A stretch of DNA of 64,000 nucleotides from an uncultured Gemmatimonadaceae bacterium. Its GTDB lineage: Bacteria > Gemmatimonadota > Gemmatimonadetes > Gemmatimonadales > Gemmatimonadaceae. Positions 43,478 through 51,250 of this stretch are shown here, piece after piece. Positions within the stretch are counted from its first letter, which is position 1. Each line of letters begins with the position of its first letter. The stretch lies in NCBI GenBank assembly GCA_963829055.1, contig CAWHHI010000006.1, forward strand, positions 64,001-128,000, given 5' to 3'. Made by a program: the position numbers and the translations under genes. The notes below the pieces were generated by a model. That model saw nothing but the letters and a program-made list of their open reading frames with translations, was not told the origin of the DNA and searched no databases.

Positions 43478-43627
43478 TGTCATTCCGAGCGAGCGCAGCC
43501 GGGAGCCACGGAACGTGGGCAGATGAGGAATCCTTGGCGTCCCGGTAGAGAGCCCTCGACCGGTACGATCGCGATTCCTCGAGCGCCCAGAGGCACCCGC
43601 GGCCTGCGGCCTCCGCTCGGAATGACA
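43478..43627. repeat. REP-like palindrome
   Basis: Same family ends. Confidence 0.85.
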
Positions 43628-43640
43628 AATGAATCTAGTC

Positions 43641-43670
43641 TTGACAACGAACGGGGGTCGATGCTAGTGT
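43641..43670 (+). promoter_or_regulatory. Sigma70-type promoter for the ncRNA/Ro60 locus
   Basis: TTGACA-N18-TAGTGT with extended -10 TG. Confidence 0.6.
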
Positions 43671-43682
43671 GCGCCCCTTGGG

Positions 43683-44195
43683 AGTCGCGTCCCGATGTTC
43701 ACGGCACGCCGCGCACTGCGCGGAGGTGCCACCTCGACCATTCACCGCACGGTCGAGCGAGCATCGAGGGCGCGACTTTGCGTTTCTGGGTGACCGGTGT
43801 CGCGGTGCCGGGGTCTGGCTAGTCACCTGCGGATCGAGCTCCCGCGTGCGCGCACGAGTACAACGCGAGTGCGCAGCAGCGATCCGTTGAACCAATAGAT
43901 GTGAAGCACCAAGGAATCTCTTCGAATGAAACCAACCATTTATCTCCCACTCGCCAATCGCGACGTCAGCGGCCCGTGCCGCTCGAGCGCGAGCTTGCCC
44001 GCGCGCTTCGGCGTCGGGCGGAGTGAGATGCATGGTCTGTGGATCGAGACCGAAGGCAGGCAAGTGGGCACGAAGGATCAACGCACGCAGAGTGCGGGTG
44101 GCTCAGGGGAGAAGCGAACGCCGTAGCGTATCGCGATCGTCCGAGCGAGGAGCGAATCAATCGCCCCACCTGCGCAACGCTGCAGGTGGGGCGAT
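43683..44195 (+). ncRNA. Candidate large structured non-coding RNA of unknown family
   Basis: No credible ORF; multiple long helices and crossing pairings directly after the promoter. Confidence 0.45.
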
Positions 44196-44284
44196 CTGCA
44201 TCTGGTGGCCCAAGTCGTTGGCTGTGTGATGGTTGTTGGTCGCTGTTTGACAATCGAACGTCCGGAATTTGGAAGTTGTTCAGA

Positions 44285-44386
44285 GACTTCACCGTCGGCC
44301 GGCGGGAGTGTGGCGCCAACAGCGTTAGGCGAACGCGACTCCCTGTGCTGCGAGCGATTCTGCTCCCGTCGTGCCTCGGTGAAGTC
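44285..44386 (+). ncRNA. Y RNA-like long stem
   Basis: GACTTCACCG/CGGTGAAGTC and GGCCGGCGGGAG/CTCCCGTCGTGCC pair; sits in the Ro60 locus. Confidence 0.5.
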
Positions 44387-44392
44387 CCATGT

Positions 44393-44467
44393 GCCGCCGT
44401 AGCTCAGTGGATCCAGAGCACCTGGTTACGACCCAGGGGGTCGCGTGTTCAAGTCACGCCGGCGGTT
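44393..44467 (+). tRNA. tRNA-Arg(ACG), CCA not encoded
   Basis: GCCGCCG/CGGCGGT, GCTC/GAGC, CCTGG-TTACGAC-CCAGG, GCGTG-TTCAAGT-CACGC. Confidence 0.85.
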
Positions 44468-44476
44468 CCTTTTGAT

Positions 44477-44603
44477 GGGCCTGTAGCTCAGTTGGTAGAG
44501 CACCAACAAACACCCTTGCCGTTTTCGTCCGCCTAACGGGCCGCAGGTGGAGGGTTATCGCCTTCAACGCGGGAGGTCGCAGGTTCGAGTCCTGCCAGGT
44601 CCA
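44477..44603 (+). ncRNA. tRNA/Y RNA chimera: tRNA cloverleaf (anticodon TCA) with a 54-nt Ro-binding-like helix inserted in the anticodon stem
   Basis: GGGCCTG/CAGGTCC, GCTC/GAGC, GCAGG-TTCGAGT-CCTGC; insert 44505-44558 with CGTCCG/CGGGC[C]G. Confidence 0.75.
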
Positions 44604-44607
44604 TATT

Positions 44608-44771
44608 TGTCATTCCGAGCGGTGATGTCATTCCGAGCGAGCGCAGCGAGTCGAGGAATCGCGATCATATCGGTAGAGGGCCCTCTATCGGGACGAGTCG
44701 CGATTCCTCGACTCGCTTCGCTCGCTCGGAATGACTACCCGCTCGGAATGACATCGCCCGCTCGGAATGAT
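44608..44771. repeat. REP-like palindrome with duplicated ends
   Basis: Same family. Confidence 0.9.
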
Positions 44772-44806
44772 TGCGACGTGTATGGGCTTTTGCCGCACGT
44801 CGTCCG

Positions 44807-44921
44807 GGGATCGTAGTTCAACGTCAGAACGCGCCACCGCCGCACGAGTCCTTTGCCCGACGAGGGCCGACGAGTGCGGATGAACGGTGGCGAGATGCGG
44901 GTTCGACTCCCGCCGATTGCC
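44807..44921 (+). ncRNA. Second tRNA/Y RNA chimera: anticodon loop replaced by an extended helix ending in a bulged-C stem
   Basis: GGGATCG/CGATTGC, GTTC/GAAC, CGCCACCG/CGGTGGCG, CCGCAC/GTGCGG, TTGCCC/GGGC[C]GA, GCGGG-TTCGACT-CCCGC. Confidence 0.72.
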
Positions 44922-45025
44922 GGTGGTACTTGTAGGACAAATCTGCGATTCGGATGGTCGCCTAACGGGCCCGGCTGGCTTCTTGGCGCATTCGAACGGC
45001 GGCCGCAGATAACTGAAACCGCAAT

Positions 45026-45392
45026 TCACCGCGGAGGACGCTGAGGACCGCATCGCAACCATCTCAGACGAAAAACGCGAACGGATTCGCCGGATCGGCC
45101 GGATCGACTCCGAGGAGAGGCGGGTCGGCGTATCGCAACGAGCCCTTTGAAGGGGAACAGCACGCACCAGTGGCGGGTCATCCCGAGCGGCAGCGTTTGT
45201 CATCCCGAGCGCAGCGAGGGATCTTCTCGAACGTCATCGTAGCCAGTCCGGCCACGATGCCATCACACAAGGTCCCTCGTCGCTAGCGCTCCTCGGGATG
45301 ACCACGGAATCAATCCGCCAGATCAGACGAATCCGTTCGCGTCCTTCGTCTGAGGTGGTTGCCGAAGCAGTCCTCGGCGTCCTCCGCGGTGA
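45026..45392. repeat. Nested palindrome: ~85-bp outer inverted arms enclosing a REP-like element (45178-45302)
   Basis: TCACCGCGGAGGACGCTGAGGAC..AACGGATTCG pairs with CGAATCCGTT..GTCCTCGGCGTCCTCCGCGGTGA. Confidence 0.8.
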
Positions 45393-45499
45393 CATGGCCG
45401 TTGGCGTCGCCCGCGTTCGGCCGATGACCCTTGTCGGTCGTCGTCCAGCTCACGCGTCCGAAAGGCGGAGCAGGCCACCGCTGGCAACAGTCGTATCTC

Positions 45500-45615
45500 A
45501 GTCGTGGAGCCGAAGGGCGGTTCCCTCTCCAGTGCCTCGCCCGACCCATCGGGCCGATAGACGAGGGTTATCTGGTCAAGCGGGTTCGAATCCCGACGCT
45601 CTTCGCTTCACGACT
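45500..45615 (+). ncRNA. Y RNA (YrlA-related) candidate with two bulged-C helices and a T-arm
   Basis: AGTCGTGGAGC[C]GAAGGGCG/CGCTCTTCGCTTCACGACT; inner TCGCCCGA/TCGGGC[C]GA; GAGGGTTATC; CGGG-TTCGAAT-CCCG. Confidence 0.65.
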
Positions 45616-45634
45616 CGCTTGCACGACTCGCTTC

Positions 45635-45828
45635 GCCGAGTGGGTCGACGAGGCTCGATTATCGATGACACTCGGACTCCGAAAGGAGCAATTCGAGCCC
45701 GCTACCTCATCCGCTCGGCTACATCGTCCCCGGTCTTCGGGTCGACGCAGCGTGGGTTATCGGACCGTGCGCGGAGCTGGATCCAAACAGTTCCACATGG
45801 CAACCCCACCGCATCAACTCATCCGAAG
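45635..45828 (+). ncRNA. Two further Y-like stems (45635-45719 and 45735-45828)
   Basis: GCCGAGTGGGT/ATCCGCTCGGC; CTTCGGGT/ATCCGAAG with GTGGGTTATC. Confidence 0.45.
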
Positions 45829-45867
45829 GCCATTCACTCCCATCACCCTCGACCAAGGAGGCGAGAG

Positions 45868-47529
45868 ATGTTGGACTTCACGAAGCACTACGTGGCTCGC
45901 CTAACGCGTCTCGTGACGCCGCAGGCCGAGCGTATCCCGGAGACCACTCAGGTCCCCAACTCGGCGGGCGGGTATGCCTGGCCCGTCGACCCGTGGACGC
46001 GCTTCGATCGGTTCCTGATCTTCGGGAGCGAGCGCGGAACGTATTACATCCGCGAGCGCACGCTGACGATCGAGAACGCGACGAACGCGCGCCTGGTCAT
46101 CGCGGAGGATGGACCTCGCGCCGTCCGTCGGATCGTCGAGGTCAGCACGGGCGGGCGGGCACCGAGCAACGATCCGGCGTTGTTCGCGCTCGCCATGTGC
46201 GCGGGGCTCGGGGACGACGTCACGCGCGCGATGGCGCTCGAGGCGCTGCCTGACGTGGCGCGCACGGCGACGCACCTCTTCCACTTCCTGCAGTACGTCC
46301 GCGCGTTCCGCGGGTGGGGGCGTGGCGTGCGTCGTGCCGTCGGACGCTGGTACACGGCCAAGCCGGCGCCGGCGATCGCGTACCAGATGCTCAAGTACCA
46401 GGCGCGTGACGGGTGGACGCACCGCGACGCTTTGCGCCTGGCGCACCCCAAGGCACCGACCGTCGGGCACGACGTGCTGTTTCGCTACGCCACGAAGGGG
46501 TGGGAAGGGGTGTTGGAGCTCGAGGGGATCAACGATCTCGACGTGGTCGCGCTCATCGAGGCGATCAAGTCGCTCGCGCACCTAACGCCGGCGGAAGCCG
46601 CGAGCGTGATCACGCGCATGCGTCTCACGCGCGAGATGGTGCCGACCGAGCTGTTGGCGTCGCCGGCCGTGTGGGATGCGTTGCTCGAGCGCATGCCGCT
46701 CATGGCAATGATCCGCAACCTCGGGGTCATGACGAAGGTTGGGCTGGTCGCGCCGGGAAGCGATGCGGCGCGGACGGTCGTGGATCGACTCTCTGACACG
46801 AACGCGCTGCGTGGCGCGCGCGTGCACCCGGTTGCGGTGCTCGTCGCCATGAAGACGTACGCGCAGGGGCGCGGAATGAAGGGAAGCGGGAAGTGGTCGC
46901 CGGTGGCGCAGGTGGTCGATGCGCTCGACAAGGCGTTCTACCTCTCGTTCGAGAATGCGCCCACGACGGGCAAGCGGATCATGCTGGCGCTCGACGTCTC
47001 CGGATCGATGGGGTCGCCGGTGTTCGGGATGGACTACCTGACGTGTCGTGAGGCGGCGGCCGCGATGGCGCTCGTGACGGCCGCGACGGAGCCGAACCAT
47101 CGCTTCGTTGCGTTCACGACGGGTGACTATCCGTCGCAGTGGACGGCGACGCATGGGTCGCAGTACAACACGGGATTGTCGGAGCTGGCGATCTCGCCGC
47201 GTCAGCGTCTGGACGACGTGGTGCGCCTGACGGGGAACCTGCCGTTCGGGGGAACCGATTGCGCATTGCCGATGGTCGAGGCGTTGAAGCATCGCTGGGC
47301 GGTGGACGCGTTCGTCGTGTTCACGGACAGCGAGACGTGGGCCGGGAACATTCATCCCTCGCAGGCGCTTCGCGAGTACCGGGAGCGCATGGGAATCGCG
47401 GCCAAGCTGGTGGTGGTCGCGATGACGTCGAACGGGTTCAGCATTGCGGACCCGGACGATGCGGGAATGCTGGACGTCGTGGGGTTCGATACCGCGACGC
47501 CTAACGTGCTCGCGGAGTTCATTACATAA
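45868..47529 (+). CDS. rsr: Ro60/Rsr TROVE + vWA domain RNA-binding protein
   Basis: NSAGGY, RFLIFGSE.GTYY, KYQARDGWTHRDALRLAHPK, MPLMAMIRNLG, DVSGSM, GGTDCALPM, TDSETW, MLDVVGFD; RBS AAGGAGG. Confidence 0.95.
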   Translation: MLDFTKHYVARLTRLVTPQAERIPETTQVPNSAGGYAWPVDPWTRFDRFLIFGSERGTYYIRERTLTIENATNARLVIAEDGPRAVRRIVEVSTGGRAPSNDPALFALAMCAGLGDDVTRAMALEALPDVARTATHLFHFLQYVRAFRGWGRGVRRAVGRWYTAKPAPAIAYQMLKYQARDGWTHRDALRLAHPKAPTVGHDVLFRYATKGWEGVLELEGINDLDVVALIEAIKSLAHLTPAEAASVITRMRLTREMVPTELLASPAVWDALLERMPLMAMIRNLGVMTKVGLVAPGSDAARTVVDRLSDTNALRGARVHPVAVLVAMKTYAQGRGMKGSGKWSPVAQVVDALDKAFYLSFENAPTTGKRIMLALDVSGSMGSPVFGMDYLTCREAAAAMALVTAATEPNHRFVAFTTGDYPSQWTATHGSQYNTGLSELAISPRQRLDDVVRLTGNLPFGGTDCALPMVEALKHRWAVDAFVVFTDSETWAGNIHPSQALREYRERMGIAAKLVVVAMTSNGFSIADPDDAGMLDVVGFDTATPNVLAEFIT

Positions 47530-47530
47530 C

Positions 47531-47656
47531 GTCATTCCGAGCGAAGGCCGTCAGGCCGCAGTCGAGGAATCGTGACCCTATCCGATAGAGGGGCCCCTCT
47601 ACCGGTATGACAGCGATTCCTCGACTTCGCGCCTGCGGCGCTCCGCTCGGAATGAC
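47531..47656. repeat. REP-like palindrome
   Basis: Same family. Confidence 0.9.
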
Positions 47657-47673
47657 CAACCAGGAGGCGAGAC

Positions 47674-48138
47674 ATGATGTTGAACAGAATGACGAATCGT
47701 GCTCGCCTGACGCGTCTCGCGACGCCGCAGGTCGAGCGAAATCAGGGAACGTGGCTGCTCACGCGATCCGCCGATGCCCCCCAGTGGCCGGCGGACGAGT
47801 GGGAGCGGCTCGATCGCTACCTCATTTTCGGCAGCGAGCCTGACGCGACCACGCGTGACGTGCACGTCCTGCGCGGCCGCATCGAGGTCGATGGTCCTCG
47901 CGTCGTACGACGCATCGTCGAGCTCATCTCGCTCGGCCGCGTCGTCAGCGACGAGCCGTGCCTAACGGCACTCGCCATGTGCGCGACGCTCGGCAACGAG
48001 GCCACGCGCACCATGGCGTGCGAGGCGGCCGCTGAACTCGGCGCGTTTGAAATTCTTCAGGGAGGTGAGCGCGGGGCGGTCGCGTGGTTTGTCGCGGCCG
48101 CCCCGCATCGCCGGCTGTCACGTGTTCCAGCTGCCTGA
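47674..48138 (+). CDS. Short paralog of the Ro60 N-terminal TROVE region
   Basis: RLTRLATPQ, WERLDRYLIFGSE, DGPRVVRRIVE, ALAMCA align with the upstream Ro60; similar RBS. Confidence 0.7.
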   Translation: MMLNRMTNRARLTRLATPQVERNQGTWLLTRSADAPQWPADEWERLDRYLIFGSEPDATTRDVHVLRGRIEVDGPRVVRRIVELISLGRVVSDEPCLTALAMCATLGNEATRTMACEAAAELGAFEILQGGERGAVAWFVAAAPHRRLSRVPAA

Positions 48139-48260
48139 TCCTACCTGCCAGCTGGTAGCTGGGTGCTCGTGCTTGTTGACGCGAACCGCGTCCAACTGCG
48201 CTGGGTGACGCTGGGTGAAGGCAGTCAGAATTGAATTGATATCCACAATCAACAACTAAC

Positions 48261-48581
48261 ATGAACAGGTTGAAGCAGTACCTCGAGGACGAGGAACCGC
48301 TGATGCCGGAGGGAGACTACTGGGTCATCGAGACGCGTAGCGCATACCTGGTCGTCTCGGCGGATACGGCACGCGCGATCGAGCGCGCGCTGACACGCCT
48401 CTGGCGCCCGCGGTGGCTCGTGTTCCGTGATCTCACGGGTGGTCGTCGACGTTTGCAGACGAACGTCGTCGAATGCATTTACGAGAGCACGGCGAAGCAG
48501 CGAGAAGTTCGGCGCGCGTTCGATCGCGACAGGCGCCGTGAGGAAAAGGCGGACCGGCGTCCGTGGGAAGACGACGACTGA
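48261..48581 (+). CDS. Hypothetical protein
   Basis: Clean ORF with typical codon usage. Confidence 0.6.
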   Translation: MNRLKQYLEDEEPLMPEGDYWVIETRSAYLVVSADTARAIERALTRLWRPRWLVFRDLTGGRRRLQTNVVECIYESTAKQREVRRAFDRDRRREEKADRRPWEDDD

Positions 48582-48716
48582 ACACCGCGTCTTGCGACGA
48601 CCATCACGCGTCGCCGGTCGGGCTCGCTACTCCCAAGCGGGCCCTTCGGCACCAGCGGCCAGATCTTTGCGGCGGCTTTGCGGTCCCTTTTCACCCTACA
48701 CCGCGAGGCGCACCCA

Positions 48717-49229
48717 ATGGCAAAGACTCCGAAGATTGCTCCATGCCTCTGGTTTGCGGATGAGGCCGAAGAGGCCGCGCGTTTTTACACCGGGATCTTC
48801 AGGAAATCACGCATCCTGACGACGACGCGGTACGGCAAGGCTGGATTCGAAGCGCATCACCGGCCCGAGGGATCGGTGATGACCGTCGAGTTCGAGCTCG
48901 ACGGACAACGGTTCACCGCACTCAATGGTGGGCCGGCATTCACGTTCAACGAAGCGATCTCGCTTCAGATCTACTGCGATTCGCAAGACGAGATCGACTA
49001 CTACTGGTCGAAGCTGGGCGAGGGCGGCGATCCGAAGGCGCAGCAGTGCGGCTGGTTGAAGGATCGCTACGGCGTGTCGTGGCAGGTCGTGCCCAAGGGC
49101 ATGGAGGAGTTCTACAAGGACGAGAACTCCCCGGGCGCGCAGCGTACGATGGAAGCGATGCTCAAGATGAAGAAGCTCGACATCGCGGAGCTCAAGCGGG
49201 CTTACGACGGTGAGCTGGCGAACGTCTAG
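48717..49229 (+). CDS. VOC/PhnB-like (3-demethylubiquinone-9 methyltransferase family) protein
   Basis: PCLWF..AEEAA, ALNGGP.F.FNEAISL, QCGWLKDRYGVSWQVVP. Confidence 0.9.
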   Translation: MAKTPKIAPCLWFADEAEEAARFYTGIFRKSRILTTTRYGKAGFEAHHRPEGSVMTVEFELDGQRFTALNGGPAFTFNEAISLQIYCDSQDEIDYYWSKLGEGGDPKAQQCGWLKDRYGVSWQVVPKGMEEFYKDENSPGAQRTMEAMLKMKKLDIAELKRAYDGELANV

Positions 49230-49422
49230 TTAGGCGCTGGCTACCGGTCGTCATTCCGAGCGGAGCCCGCGTACCGCGGGCGCTCCGCTCGGAATGACGA
49301 CCGCTCTGGACATGACAACGTGTCATGTTCGGCGGATGACGTTCCCCAGTGTCGCGAATCGGACGGAGTGCGTAACCTGAGCCCCAGGTTCAACGGCTAC
49401 AGGACTCATTCCGGATCCGCAC

Positions 49423-51250
49423 ATGCGCTCGCGCCGCTCGATAGCAGTCATTCCGTCGCTCATTCTCGCCATCGCAATCGCCGCCGCGCCGATCCTGGCG
49501 CAGGACGCGCCAGCTACACTCTTTCACAACGTCCGCGTCTTCGACGGGACGCGCATGCTCGCCGCCCAGGATGTGCTCGTGCAATCCGGCCGCATCGCGC
49601 AACATCGGGCCGAGCCTAACGGCACCCGCCGGCGCGGTCACGATCGATGGGCGTGGCAAGACGCTGCTCCCCGGACTCATCGACTCGCACACCCACACGT
49701 TCGGCGACGCCAGCAAGACCGCCCTCATCTTCGGCGTCACCACCGAGCTCGACATGTTCAGCGACGCCGCCGCGGCCCGCACTGCGCGCGCGGAGCAGGC
49801 AGCCGGCAAGGCCACCGATCGCGCCGATCTGTTCTCGGCAGGCACGCTGGTCACCGTTCCGAAAGGCCACGGCACCGAGTACGGCATGACGATTCCGACC
49901 ATCACTGAACCGGATTCCGCCCAGGCGTTCGTGGACGCGCGGATCGCGGAAGGGTCGGACTACATCAAGCTCGTGTACGACGACGGCCACACGTATGGCA
50001 TGTCGCTCCCCACGCTCCGCAAGGAGACGATGCGCGCGGTGATCGCCGCGGCGCACAAGCGCGGGAAGCTCGCGGTCGTGCACATCGGCGACCTCGCCGG
50101 CGCGCGTGATGCGATCGATGCCGGAGCGGACGGACTCGTGCACCTCTTCGTCGATCGCGAGCCCGACGCCGAGTTCGGAAAGTTCGTCGCGGCCCACCAC
50201 GCGTTCGTCACGCCGACGCTGACGGTTCTCATGAGCATCACTGGCGTCGGAGGTGGTGCGACACTCATCACCGACACGCGACTGAGTCCGTTCCTCTCGA
50301 AGATGGATCGCACCGTATTGGCGCAGGCATTCCCGACTCGACCGGGGACGCCGCCCAAGAGCTACGAGGCTGCCGAGAAGTCGATCAAGCAACTTCGCGC
50401 GGCGGGCGTTCCGATTCTCGCGGGCACCGATGCCGGGAACCCGGGCACGTCGCACGGTGCGGCGCTGCATCGCGAGCTCGAGCTGCTGGTGAAAGCCGGG
50501 CTGACTCCCACCGAAGCGCTGGCCGCCGCGACCAGCGTTCCGGCGAAGACCTTCCGGCTCGGCGACCGCGGTCGCATCGCGAAAGGCATGCGCGCCGACC
50601 TCGTGCTCGTGAATGGCGACCCATCTGTGGACATCACCGCGACGCGGGCGATCGACGGCGTGTGGAAGCAGGGCGTTCGTGCCGATCGTGACAGCTTCGC
50701 GAAGGCCATTGTCGCGGCGAATACGGCTGTCGGACGCGAGCCGCCCGGTGCAACTTCGGGCGTCGTGAGCGATTTCGAGAGCGGTACGACCGCGACGACG
50801 TTCGGCGCCGGCTGGTCGGTCACGACGGACGCGCTGGCGAACGGCAAGTCGGAGTCCGCCATGAAGGTCGTGAACAACGGCGCCAACGGCAGCGCGAAGT
50901 CGCTCGAGATCACCGGCACCATCTCGCCCGCGCTTCCGTACGCGTGGGGAGGCGCGATGTTCTCGCCGGGTCAGCAGATGATGACGCCGGCGAACCTGTC
51001 GTCGAAGAAGGAAGTGTCGTTCTGGGCGAAAGGTGATGGCAAGACGTACCGCGTGATGATCTTCACCGAGGGCAAGGGGTATACGCCGCTCATGCAGGAC
51101 TTCGTCGCAGGGTCCGAGTGGAAGCAGTACACGTTCCCGTTCTCCGCGTTCAGCGGAATCGATGGGCACGACCTCATGGCGTTGATGTTCGTCGGCGGAC
51201 CGCAGCCCGGCCCATTCGCCTTCCAGATCGACGACGTCCGCTTCCGCTGA
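49423..51250 (+). CDS. Secreted amidohydrolase with C-terminal CIA30-like domain (frameshift ~49605)
   Basis: PGLIDSHTH, AGTDAGN, RADLVLVNGDP; FWAKGDGKTYRV. Confidence 0.83.

Follow-up and report, generated by a model that had tools for sequence, protein, structure and literature searches.

In a 64-kb window (64,000 nucleotides) from an uncultured Gemmatimonadaceae bacterium, the 1.6 kb between a TTGACA box at position 44248 and the start of rsr (45868) carries a gene for tRNA-Arg together with five conserved genes for structured RNAs (C, D, E′, F1 and F2), each of which contains the bulged-C helix GGGY[C]GA, of the type that Ro60 proteins are known to bind. These five RNAs are probably Y RNAs that would bind the Rsr ring and be released from a common precursor by tRNA-processing enzymes. 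To the extent that sequence can tell, the array stands as an expanded, structurally varied set of Ro60-type RNAs, and covariation supports all three of its architectures (F1 and F2; C and E′; D), compensatory changes having been found across homologous loci. In this genome the five are confined to the rsr locus, with one paralog of D, named D2, upstream of rtcB. An earlier note had read the gap of ~2.2 kb before rsr as such a set; this holds for the five covarying elements at the rsr locus, but the first ~600 nt form a separate unit and some of the stems are repeats. Analogies for the proposed functions are drawn from Deinococcus radiodurans (the Yrn2-tRNA-Asp-Yrn1 polycistron), Salmonella and M. 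smegmatis, following Chen et al. 2014 (PMC4201824).

The protein encoded at this locus is a Ro60 ortholog, as had been proposed. The ORF at 45298-47529 matches Pfam TROVE (2.4e-43) and vWA_Ro60 (1.6e-62) at residues 220-742, and rsr itself likely starts with the ATG at 45868, preceded by AAGGAGG, giving 553 aa (45868..47529, + strand). Rsr matches X. laevis Ro60 (1yvp, 7.6e-124) and D. radiodurans Rsr (2nvo, 5.2e-111), and the gene is intact. Both sequence motifs noticed earlier as shared by three elements were recovered: GGGCCG lies within C, D and E′, and GGGTTATC occurs three times in the 64-kb window when both strands are searched (44552, 45565 and 45754), always on the + strand and upstream of rsr, against a chance expectation of 0.38 (three copies were reached in 1 of 100 shuffles). 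The published motif GNCGAAN0-1G found no exact fit in the elements, which read GCCGCA, GCCGAC, GCCGAU and GUCGAC.

F1 (45635..45719) and F2 (45732..45831), both on the + strand, are stand-alone Y RNAs that score 63.4 and 61.3 bits with model R2; F1 is conserved in G001, G002, G005 and G006. The terminal stem of F1 is GCCGAGUGGGU[C]GA / UCAUCCGCUCGGC, with CGAUUAUC in place of GGGUUAUC, and that of F2 is GGUCUUCGGGU[C]GA / UCAUCCGAAGGCC, accompanied by GUGGGUUAUC. This stem resembles that of animal Y RNAs and of nematode stem-bulge RNAs (Rfam RF01656): it is built from the 5′ and 3′ ends and comprises four pairs, the bulged C, and G and A pairs, with an upper stem of the GGGUUAUC type; the differences are a U-A rather than C-G pair next to the bulge, the bacterial host, and an RF01656 score for F2 that falls under the cutoff (26.6 bits, E 0.003; cutoff 38). 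RF01656 passes its own cutoff on counterparts in five Verrucomicrobial-type loci, and no Rfam Y-family model attains its cutoff in the window. Model R2 matched 7 of the 61 genomes of relatives, exactly the seven that hold rsr, and none of the 54 in which the rsr query had found nothing; in the organism's own 7.8-Mb genome it matched F1 and F2 only. Across the type-1 RNAs (n = 25), 95.8% of cells pair, compared with 76.3% after shuffling (0/500) and 35-45% with partners slid. Because a script admitted rows to alignment A3 on the condition that they had the core helix and at least five further pairs, the high pairing of helix 1 is partly built in; only the variety of its pair types, together with helix 2 (90.6% paired), escapes this selection bias. 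The fourth pair is U-A (19) or C-G (6) and never broken, and the bulged C and the following G are invariant in the alignment. By analogy, F1 and F2 would act as classical Y RNAs, with a terminal stem that binds Ro and variable loops for a partner.

C (44477..44603, + strand; model R1 107.8 bits, register classifier 3TD) and E′ (45505..45610, + strand; 45.9 bits, classifier 3T) carry a capped Y-RNA stem in place of the anticodon arm, with the acceptor end open, and are the un-permuted counterpart of YrlA. In C, a 7-bp acceptor stem carrying G3:U70 and A73 is combined with a D arm, the capped Y stem (CACCCUUGCC..GUCCG / CCUAA loop / CGGGC[C]GC..GGAGGGUUAUC), a variable hairpin and a T arm. E′ is closed by a long stem and contains a capped Y stem (..GCCCGA / CCCA loop / UCGGGC[C]GAU..GAGGGUUAUC) and a T arm (GCGGGUUCGAAUCCCGA), but no D arm. 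Model R1 gave 38 matches in this genome, of which only C, D and E′ exceed 100 nt. Among the relatives C has an ortholog in G004 only, and its structure is supported by covariation; E′ has no ortholog in the genus, its architecture recurs in L029, L032, L036, L041 and L043, and an RNA-library contig spans 45490-45702. The acceptor helix of the tRNA-order RNAs is 95.2% paired, with five of its seven pairs changed on both sides, and a perfect 7-bp acceptor stem of varied sequence is present in 20 of 21 type-3 RNAs.

YrlA (RF02553) is described as a circularly permuted tRNA that runs from the 5′ Ro strand through the T arm, a closed acceptor-like hairpin and the D arm to the 3′ Ro strand (PMC4201824; Wang et al. 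2018 preprint, 10.1101/312249). Like YrlA, the RNAs described here are encoded on the rsr strand no more than 4 kb from that gene, and contain tRNA-like T and D arms and a Ro-type helix whose GNCGA core is followed by a junction containing YUAY (here GGGUUAUC). They differ in that C, and the D-arm-less E′, follow ordinary tRNA order with an open 7-bp acceptor stem, and that a 4-5-nt loop joins both Ro strands. The Rfam YrlA search suggested by the earlier note gave no valid match; its hit (27.8 bits, cutoff 69) is an artefact that bridges the T arm of tRNA-Arg and the D arm of C. Because C, D and E′ have a tRNA-like build in normal order, they likely represent a new arrangement within the known class of tRNA-mimicking Y RNAs. 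By analogy, C and E′ would act as YrlA does, with a capped Ro-binding hairpin at the anticodon-arm position, and their open acceptor end may receive tRNA-like ends through RNase P, 3′ trimming and CCA addition. The tRNA-like domain of tmRNA is charged by AlaRS through G3:U70. G3:U70 and A73 occur together on an open acceptor stem in 6 of 21 tRNA-order Y RNAs (C and five others); unlike tmRNA, C has no mRNA-like part, and its G004 ortholog has G3-C70.

D (44774..44923, + strand) is a 5′ hairpin (44774-44802) followed by a cloverleaf, which the Rfam tRNA model matches at 37.2 bits with a 50-nt insert (44807-44921); C and D are the two tRNA-shaped RNAs with inserted helices that had been reported. 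In the cloverleaf, a 10-bp stem closes the structure, the D arm has no GG dinucleotide, the T arm is canonical, and a 61-nt rod contains tandem G-A, with GCCC-GACGA-GGGC[C]GA at its tip. D is 85-91% identical in five relatives, exceeding the conservation of tRNA-Arg; here as in the other counts across relatives, kinship means that the counts are not independent. In 16 sequences D is 96.9% paired, with 10 pairs changed on both sides (0/500), the proposed pair 84-107 breaking in 7 of the 16; around the bulged C the alignment columns are invariant, which leaves the register of the helix ambiguous at that point.

Gene order associates D with rtcB no less than with rsr. In G000, G001 and G005, rtcB is preceded at a distance of ~280-290 nt by D2 on its own strand, and G001, G002 and G006 have a second rtcB inside the rsr locus, placed between the RNAs and rsr and directly preceded by D and tRNA-Arg. 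We considered that D and D2 could serve RtcB and not be Ro60 ligands. As a leader or decoy, for instance, such an RNA could sense or imitate damaged tRNA and control or guide the RNA ligase; the GGGCCGA hairpin would then only resemble a Ro site. In 80 metagenome loci with a D core, rtcB follows downstream on the same strand in 26, D is without GGGUUAUC and the upper Y stem, and this genome, which is 86% complete, yielded no RtcR (PF06956), all of which fits such a role. However, rsr follows downstream on the same strand in 20 of the 80, starting just ~155 nt after the D core in seven of these with no rtcB detected between, and 23 D2-type loci are without downstream rtcB, which leaves this reading possible but doubtful. 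More broadly, 19 of 74 loci have rtcB no further than ~4 kb from rsr. Since rsr and rtcB are known operon partners, the Ro60 and RtcB readings of D are compatible. With D and D2 as Y RNAs, they would likely join Rsr-based RNA quality control to RtcB-based RNA repair. The order in the Salmonella operon is rsr-yrlBA-rtcBA. In PMC7790460 it is presented as an RNA repair operon, which our locus resembles in the linkage of rsr, Y RNAs and rtcB, with rtcB between the RNAs and rsr in the three relatives named above; here, in contrast, RtcR was not found and rtcB lies on another contig, behind D2. These are the genome's only rtcB matches, in agreement with the absence of rtcB from the window noted earlier.

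Counterparts of the array RNAs occur in many phyla, upstream of rsr and on its strand. Across 75 loci, types 2, 1T, 3TD and 3T lie 117 times on the rsr strand and never on the opposite one, and type 1 lies 83 times on the rsr strand and 10 times opposite. The tRNA-order form was found in 17 of 23 Gemmatimonadota loci, and also in Chloroflexota, while the permuted YrlA form was found in none of those 23 and in 30 of the 52 loci of other phyla; the tRNA-order form thus dominates in Gemmatimonadota, and other phyla are mostly permuted. In other phyla rsr also lies inside large same-strand tRNA arrays (15 loci with 117 Rfam matches, five to RF01656 and the rest to tRNA), the locus has undergone rearrangement among the relatives and contains many repeats, and C and E′ are not conserved across the genus, as would be expected if the tRNA-shaped elements were decaying, functionless pseudo-tRNAs from a horizontally acquired tRNA array. 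This is improbable given that D is better conserved than the bona fide tRNA-Arg, that the acceptor, T and rod helices are kept by compensatory changes with nearly all acceptor stems perfect, and that the insert, in 17 of 23 Gemmatimonadota loci and in Chloroflexota, is invariably one and the same two-stranded Y stem, placed where the anticodon arm would be.

The TTGACA box at 44248..44253 (P2, + strand) is conserved in all three relatives, within a block (CGCTGTTTGACAAYCGA) that is invariant in 4 of 4 genomes, and is likely the putative start of the RNA operon. It is followed by B0 (44285..44388, + strand; inverted repeat I18), a long-stem RNA of ~100 nt with the invariant core GCGTTAGGCGAACGCGACTCCCTG, a closing stem with compensatory changes and an RNAalifold energy of -46.8 kcal/mol on four genomes; B0 is without the Ro-type motif. 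The tRNA-Arg(ACG) reported previously was called by ARAGORN and Rfam (44393..44469, + strand; 60.5 bits). It is an extra, divergent third copy among three tRNA-Arg(ACG) and 62 tRNAs of the genome, and its closest matches are not the other two copies.

RNA-library contigs from three studies cover F1-F2, with F2 covered in all three: 45641-45856 (X18), 45689-45839 (X19), and 45649-45798 and 45791-45942 (X20), each with 1-4 differing letters. When 20 kb was compared, all 11 pieces of at least 100 nt among the matches listed fell within 44045-49754. The data are assembled contigs from runs selected for containing this stretch, with DNA carry-over possible, and give a hint of expression. The contig at 45791-45942 crosses from F2 into rsr, and no terminator-like site was found on the + strand from 44250 to 45868, consistent with the whole stretch acting in cis as one long 5′ leader, or attenuator, of the rsr mRNA and yielding no separate RNAs. 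We consider this very unlikely, as the stretch includes a bona fide tRNA gene and tRNA-like units, which are normally excised by RNase P and RNase Z, the units are reshuffled independently of one another across relatives, and known rsr loci yield discrete Y RNAs from such precursors, according to PMC4201824. In the same source, the D. radiodurans rsr locus has a Yrn2-tRNA-Asp-Yrn1 polycistron and RNAs a, b and d, and so likewise combines several small RNAs and a genuine tRNA upstream of rsr, with both Ro-helix strands kept, as in animal Y RNAs. As described there, Yrn1 has its Ro stem at the acceptor position and keeps an anticodon-like arm, whereas here the Ro stem takes the anticodon position, and the polycistron contrasts with our array, for which we infer co-transcription.

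Although D aligns over its full length to the Rfam tRNA model, with 50 nt as an anticodon-loop insert, it is scarcely credible that C, D and E′ are intron-bearing genes spliced to working tRNAs, since C and E′ retain no anticodon stem-loop, the whole arm being replaced, the inserts are far shorter than group I introns and are the conserved part, the archaeal/eukaryal splicing endonuclease is not known in bacteria (see also 10.1101/312249), ARAGORN calls none of the three, and the joints seen in RNA-library contigs carry other anticodon arms and 19-26-nt flanks and so derive from other organisms' ordinary tRNAs.

A separate unit takes up the first ~600 nt of the gap and comprises a promoter-like box, a leader, a 66-codon ORF and a terminator-like hairpin. 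The promoter-like box P1 (43641..43672, + strand; TTGACA, ~18 nt, TAGTGT) was previously read as a sigma70-like promoter; its TTGACA is kept in both relatives that cover the position (G002 and G004), but a simple consensus promoter scan returned no sites and did not call it. Transcription from P1 probably serves the leader and the small ORF, and not the RNA array directly. The structured leader (43676..43800, + strand) is a near-invariant block in 3-4 genomes that ends in GCGACTTTGCGTTT; against Rfam it gave nothing at E<=10 except one weak, chance-level match, one RNA-library contig spans 43684-43752, and we treat it as context outside the Y-RNA set. The ORF (MKPT[IV]YLPLA...LWIETEG..., 43926..44126, + strand) is conserved, with start and stop in identical alignment columns in G002, G004 and G006, which overturns the view that the gap holds no credible ORF; it matched no Pfam family at E<=1. 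A G+C-rich terminator-like hairpin lies 3′ of it (44160..44195, + strand), with invariant arms and a variable loop in four genomes.

Of the further stems pointed out earlier, several are copies of one repeat with ~450-500 BLAST matches genome-wide (43478-43627, 44605-44770, 45177-45300 and 47531-47656). The segment at 44605..44770 contains nested copies of the palindromic repeat GTCATTCCGAGCG (inverted repeats I3 and I19; 497 matches) and lies outside the RNA set. An insertion at 45026..45392, with inverted arms of ~90 nt flanking a repeat copy (I1 and I6), is private to this genome and absent from all relatives; its inner part has 452 genome matches.

Downstream of rsr, the short Ro60 paralog recognised earlier (47674..48138, + strand; 154 aa) corresponds to about the first 140 residues of Rsr, with 46% identity to residues 10-142 (E 2e-30). 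This truncated paralog is also found in G001, G002 and G005, and an RNA-library contig spans 47766-47976.

The rsr gene of the 7.8 Mb Gemmatimonadaceae genome that holds the window lies within an open reading frame at 45298–47529, whose TROVE and Ro60-type vWA domains begin only at residue 220. TROVE, the HEAT-repeat ring (PF05731, 2.4e-43), is followed by vWA (PF25045, 1.6e-62), and an ATG at 45868 with AAGGAGG in front of it gives an Rsr of 553 amino acids, matched over near-full length by Ro60 of X. laevis (1yvp) at 7.6e-124 and by Rsr of D. radiodurans (2nvo) at 5.2e-111. A truncated paralog of 154 amino acids (47674–48138), with 46% identity to the Rsr N-terminus (~140 residues), is kept in three congeners (G001, G002 and G005). 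This paralog has a ribosome-binding site of its own, and an RNA-library contig lies over it.

Upstream of rsr, cydA ends at 43483 on the opposite strand, and ~2.2 kb separate it from rsr, so the gap of the earlier note is correct in size. It had been described as lacking a credible open reading frame; alignment with three relatives divides it into two units. The first opens with a conserved TTGACA box at 43641, followed by a nearly invariant structured leader of ~120 nt that ends in a U-rich tail, a 66-codon open reading frame (43926–44126) with start and stop in the same columns in all four genomes and no matching Pfam family, and a hairpin with invariant arms (44160–44195). The stretch 43641–44195 is a separate conserved unit ahead of the RNA array, and one RNA-library contig spans 44045–44264. 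The second unit starts at another conserved TTGACA box, at 44248, so the RNA array proper is ~1.6 kb long (44250–45867). A consensus promoter scan called neither box, and both promoters are therefore proposed from conservation.

Palindromic repeats of the GTCATTCCGAGCG type lie at 43478–43627, 44605–44770, 45177–45300 and 47531–47656, with ~450–500 BLAST matches in the genome. Copies of this intergenic family (GTCATTCCGAGCG...CGCTCGGAATGAC) flank and interrupt the rsr locus. An insertion with inverted arms of ~90 nt occupies 45026–45392 and is found in no relative. Some of the additional stems reported for the gap are accordingly genome-wide repeats or this insertion.

Within the array, the only true tRNA found by ARAGORN and Rfam is tRNA-Arg(ACG) at 44393–44469, and Rfam at gathering score returned nothing else on the window. 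The genome has 62 tRNAs, and this one is its third Arg(ACG) copy, divergent and unlike the other two. Its end reads CC and then T, not CCA, and in relatives it travels with element D. Five elements (C, D, E', F1 and F2) have the GGGY-C-G(A) motif in common, all on the + strand and 37–1391 nt upstream of rsr. F1 (45635–45719) and F2 (45732–45831) stand alone, their 5' and 3' ends paired in a long stem with GGGU[C]GA over UCAUCC. In C (44477–44603), an acceptor stem of 7 bp is combined with a standard D arm and a T arm, and the hairpin between these two arms has CGGGC[C]GCAGGUGGAGGGUUAUC as its descending strand and an ascending strand that provides the partner for the lower and the upper Y helix alike. 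E' (45505–45610) repeats the design of C without the D arm. D (44774–44923) begins with a 5' hairpin and continues into a cloverleaf comprising a 10-bp closing stem, a D arm lacking the GG dinucleotide, a canonical T arm, and a rod of 61 nt with the tip GCCC-GACGA-GGGC[C]GA. None of the host tRNAs is a close source of the C, D or E' bodies. The shared motif GGGTTATC was borne out: its three copies in the whole window all lie at the rsr locus, upstream of rsr, where 0.38 would be expected in the window.

B0 (44285–44388, ~100 nt) is a sixth conserved RNA with a long stem, without the GGGY-C-G(A) motif, and the first past the second TTGACA box. Its core GCGTTAGGCGAACGCGACTCCCTG is invariant, and its closing stem carries compensatory changes. 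The B0 loop GCGTTAGGCGA is complementary to CGCCTAACG(G), which is found in C and at 44959. At 44957–44975, GGTCGCCTAACGGGCCCGG resembles the apical hairpin of C (GTCCGCCTAACGGGCCGC), and this segment, beside the insertion at 45026, may be a remnant of another tRNA-order element.

The folds were tested by covariation. For the stand-alone form, we aligned 25 elements from the genus, other Gemmatimonadota, Chloroflexota, one Gemmataceae genome and Verrucomicrobia-type loci, the rows being picked by script for the core helix plus at least five further pairs. In this alignment 95.8% of cells are paired, against 76.3% after shuffling (none of 500 as high) and 35–45% with slid partners. The bulged C is invariant, and the pair beside it is U-A in 19 elements and C-G in six, with no breaks. 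The 13-pair helix is 97.4% paired, a high value that is partly built in because rows were picked on the core helix; the variety of pair types is free of this bias. The upper helix, which was no selection criterion, is 90.6% paired, and three of its four pairs changed on both sides.

The acceptor helix of 12 C-type RNAs is 95.2% paired, with changes on both sides in five of seven pairs, and among 21 high-scoring C-type RNAs all but one form a perfect acceptor stem of 7 bp, although its sequence varies. CCA is encoded in none of these 21 tRNA-order RNAs. G3:U70 together with A73, the alanine identity set that tmRNA uses too, occurs in six of the 21 (C of the window and those at L028, L031, L032, L039 and L041); it is not conserved even in the genus, since the ortholog of C in the congener G004 has G3-C70. 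D is 85–91% identical over five relatives, against 82–85% for the tRNA-Arg. Six pairs of D changed on both sides in a set of seven sequences, and with metagenome relatives included (16 sequences) pairing in the proposed fold reaches 96.9%, both sides having changed in 10 pairs against 4.1 expected (0/500). The columns near the bulged C never vary, so the register proposed there is provisional, and one proposed pair fails in seven of the 16. This alignment (A5) left out two sequences with D-loop insertions (L135 and L177), a variant of the D paralog D2 (L179) and near-duplicate rows. Outside the D2 type, 26 distinct metagenome sequences matched the D core, and three of them (L132, L160 and L181) were rejected as chance matches in unrelated sequence.

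rsr itself was found in seven of 61 related genomes, namely that of the window and six congeners, and in none of the 54 from other genera. The covariance model of stand-alone Y RNAs (R2) matches exactly these seven and none of the 54 others, finding only F1 and F2 in the genome of the window; because sequences of the genus are in the model, the informative part is its silence elsewhere. The model of C-type RNAs (R1) gave 38 matches in the same genome, ordinary tRNAs among them, and those longer than 100 nt were only C, D and E'. At ~45–70 bits R1 overlaps ordinary tRNAs and tandem permuted YrlA units (such as L079 3642–3764, 69 bits), so its matches were counted as tRNA-order only with a pairing test.

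We compared 75 rsr loci (the window and 74 of 80 collected) by a register test that locates the partner strand of GGGY[C]G either just upstream, across a loop of 3–16 nt, or downstream. A classifier based on duplex energy had been dropped, as any 200-nt stretch of G+C-rich DNA gave −25 to −35 kcal/mol. The rsr strand carries 83 stand-alone elements, 40 stand-alone elements with a T arm, 42 permuted YrlA-like elements and 35 tRNA-order elements, of which 24 have both the D and the T arm and 11 the T arm only. The opposite strand carries 10 stand-alone elements and none of the other classes. Bare tRNA-order calls that lacked a T arm, 17 on the rsr strand against 14 on the opposite one, were discarded as noise. 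Among 23 Gemmatimonadota loci, six of which belong to this genus (the window and five congeners) so that the counts overstate independence, 17 have a tRNA-order element with both arms and none has the permuted form. Of 52 loci from other phyla, 30 carry the permuted form and three, two of them Chloroflexota, the tRNA-order form with both arms.

One known family for comparison is YrlA. Chen et al. 2014 (PMC4201824) define it by GNCGAAN0-1G and a YUAY junction, then T, acceptor-like and D stem-loops in that order; Wang et al. 2018 (10.1101/312249) describe most YrlA RNAs as circularly permuted tRNAs with closed acceptor stems and propose an origin from a dimeric tRNA. All five elements lie where YrlA would, on the strand of rsr and less than 4 kb from it. 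D, E', F1 and F2 contain GNCGA, and C reads GCCGC; set against GNCGAAN0-1G, which YrlA has on the strand entering the T arm, the elements read GCCGAC, GCCGAU, GUCGAC and GCCGCA, with C, U or an A-less form instead of A at the sixth base. YrlA begins with a 5' Ro strand, continues through the T arm, a closed acceptor-like hairpin and the D arm, and finishes with a 3' Ro strand. The order in the window is not permuted: in C and D the acceptor strands enclose the D arm, the insert and the T arm, in this sequence, and the register classifier assigned no element in the window to the permuted type. The Rfam YrlA model (RF02553), with which the locus was to be checked, returned at best 27.8 bits against a gathering score of 69, at 44436–44504, an artefact bridging the T arm of tRNA-Arg and the D arm of C.

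F1 and F2 have the paired ends and bulged-C helix of classical Y RNAs, in rows pre-selected for the core helix, and the sole notable Rfam match is that of F2 to RF01656, where it scores 26.6 bits (E 0.003) against a cutoff of 38 that it does not reach. RF01656 describes nematode stem-bulge RNAs, which are Y-RNA homologs. The tRNA model accepts D at 37.2 bits (cutoff 29) only with a 50-nt insert for a loop, and matches C over partial length at 21.2 bits; ARAGORN calls neither, and neither has a decoding anticodon stem-loop.

The D family is tied to rtcB as well as to rsr. As the earlier note remarked, rtcB is absent from the window, and the only matches in the genome lie on another contig (C4:100426–101581), in two frames split at ~100984; the gene is intact in relatives, and the split is either a frameshift or an assembly error. 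Some 285 nt upstream of it stands D2, an 85% copy of D (D2 and rtcB together, C4:100015–101581; L097 5016–6582). D2 is not truncated, carries an insert of ~60 nt in its T loop, and has a closing stem (CTGGGGACCG/CGGTCCTCGG) with compensatory changes in G001 and G004. It is 92–95% conserved in four relatives, and in G001 and G005 it shares the strand of rtcB and stands ahead of it. D2 is followed by a long hairpin built of GGGAATC-type repeats, whose end falls right at the rtcB start codon.

Three congeners have a second rtcB, ~64% identical to the first, in the rsr locus itself, between tRNA-Arg and F1 (G001, L014; G002, L012; G006, L016), and it is for this reason that 1.4 kb is missing from the window by comparison. 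At this position the window and G004 carry C and other RNAs instead. Across the collection, 19 of 74 loci have rtcB no more than ~4 kb from rsr. The D core is present in 84 metagenome stretches, of which 80 were analysed; on the same strand downstream there is rtcB in 26 of the 80 and rsr in 20, and the start of rsr falls ~155 nt past the core in seven. A further 23 are of D2 type with neither gene, and six of these, looked at individually, repeat the G002-type arrangement almost identically. Around rtcB in the other Gemmatimonadota loci examined, no D-type signature was detected, and no RtcR domain was found in the 86%-complete genome. D and D2 are a new cloverleaf family linked to rsr and rtcB, and by moving with both genes they offer a way into the still unexplained connection of RNA repair with quality control by Ro60.

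Parts of the stretch occur in 20 sequencing runs. Four of these are recorded as RNA; a fifth, X16, bears an RNA label but is probably DNA. Contigs from RNA libraries of three studies cover F1–F2 nearly exactly (X18, 45641–45856, two other letters; X19, 45689–45839, four other letters; X20, 45649–45798 and 45791–45942, the latter reaching into rsr). In a fourth run a contig covers E' and F1 (45490–45702, with a 13-nt gap), and one RNA-library contig lies over D at 91% identity. In the 20 kb compared at a likeness of at least 95%, all 11 listed pieces of at least 100 nt fall inside 44045–49754. These contigs are a hint of transcription only, as they give neither strand nor ends, the runs were picked for this stretch and DNA carry-over is possible; neither gaps in cover along the 20 kb nor the small word shares in X16–X20 were read as silence or habitat. 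Joints that skip 70–78 nt inside C trace to ordinary tRNAs of other organisms and do not reflect splicing.

The Ro60 locus with an array of tRNA- and Y-like RNAs, as first observed, is confirmed, and its interpretation is partly supported: the cluster of Y RNAs with varied structures stands, and the locus is a rich example of one. Given the genes, the covarying folds, their specificity for locus and strand and the RNA-library contigs, a working model can be set out. A single precursor would run from the box at 44248, punctuated by tRNA and tRNA-like units. Rsr would bind at the bulged-C helix, with F1 and F2 as classical tethers, C and E' offering a tRNA-like body with free ends, and D and D2 possibly bridging the functions of Rsr and RtcB. 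A bolder joint reading, which we regard as a long shot, would have the tRNA-order Y RNAs cut by RNase P and CCA-tailed and those with G3:U70/A73 (C of the window and five others of the 21) charged with alanine as tmRNA is, so that Ro60 would be tethered to an aminoacylated tRNA body able to engage EF-Tu or ribosomes; D and D2 would be a shared adaptor coupling Rsr decay and RtcB repair, and the tRNA-order form would be ancestral to permuted YrlA.

Bacterial Y RNAs have been represented by three bench-studied species and one covariance model of the permuted YrlA form. The tRNA-order version is spread through the whole phylum Gemmatimonadota, also occurs in Chloroflexota, and with its open acceptor end escapes the published model. 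It bears on the origin of tRNA mimicry by Y RNAs, and the open end prompts one to ask if CCA or an amino acid might be added. In D. radiodurans, according to PMC4201824, Yrn2, tRNA-Asp and Yrn1 form one precursor, and the arms of Yrn1 follow the opposite order, its Ro stem being formed by the ends; Gemmatimonadetes and Chloroflexi are absent from the searchable supplements of that paper. The Ro stem of Yrn1 thus takes the acceptor position, whereas in the window elements it takes the anticodon position. C and E' match neither YrlA nor Yrn1: their Ro stem is a capped one in place of the anticodon arm, and their acceptor end is open. Judged from its listings, the literature searched holds no description of this design, and the tRNA-order form is apparently undescribed.

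Two-stranded, animal-like Ro helices are common in bacteria. Many rsr loci of other phyla (L026, L039, L055, L061, L075, L084 and others) are embedded in long arrays of same-strand tRNAs that extend upstream and downstream of rsr and reach ~20 T arms in 4 kb. Of 15 such loci scanned, five (L044, L055, L061, L075 and L084) have an RF01656 match above the cutoff of that model directly ahead of rsr. A Yrn1-like order was seen only outside the window, at L067 (2973–3097), L084 (1825–1951) and L087 (3152–3276), where a Ro-type terminal stem encloses D, anticodon-like and T arms in normal order as a fourth topology.
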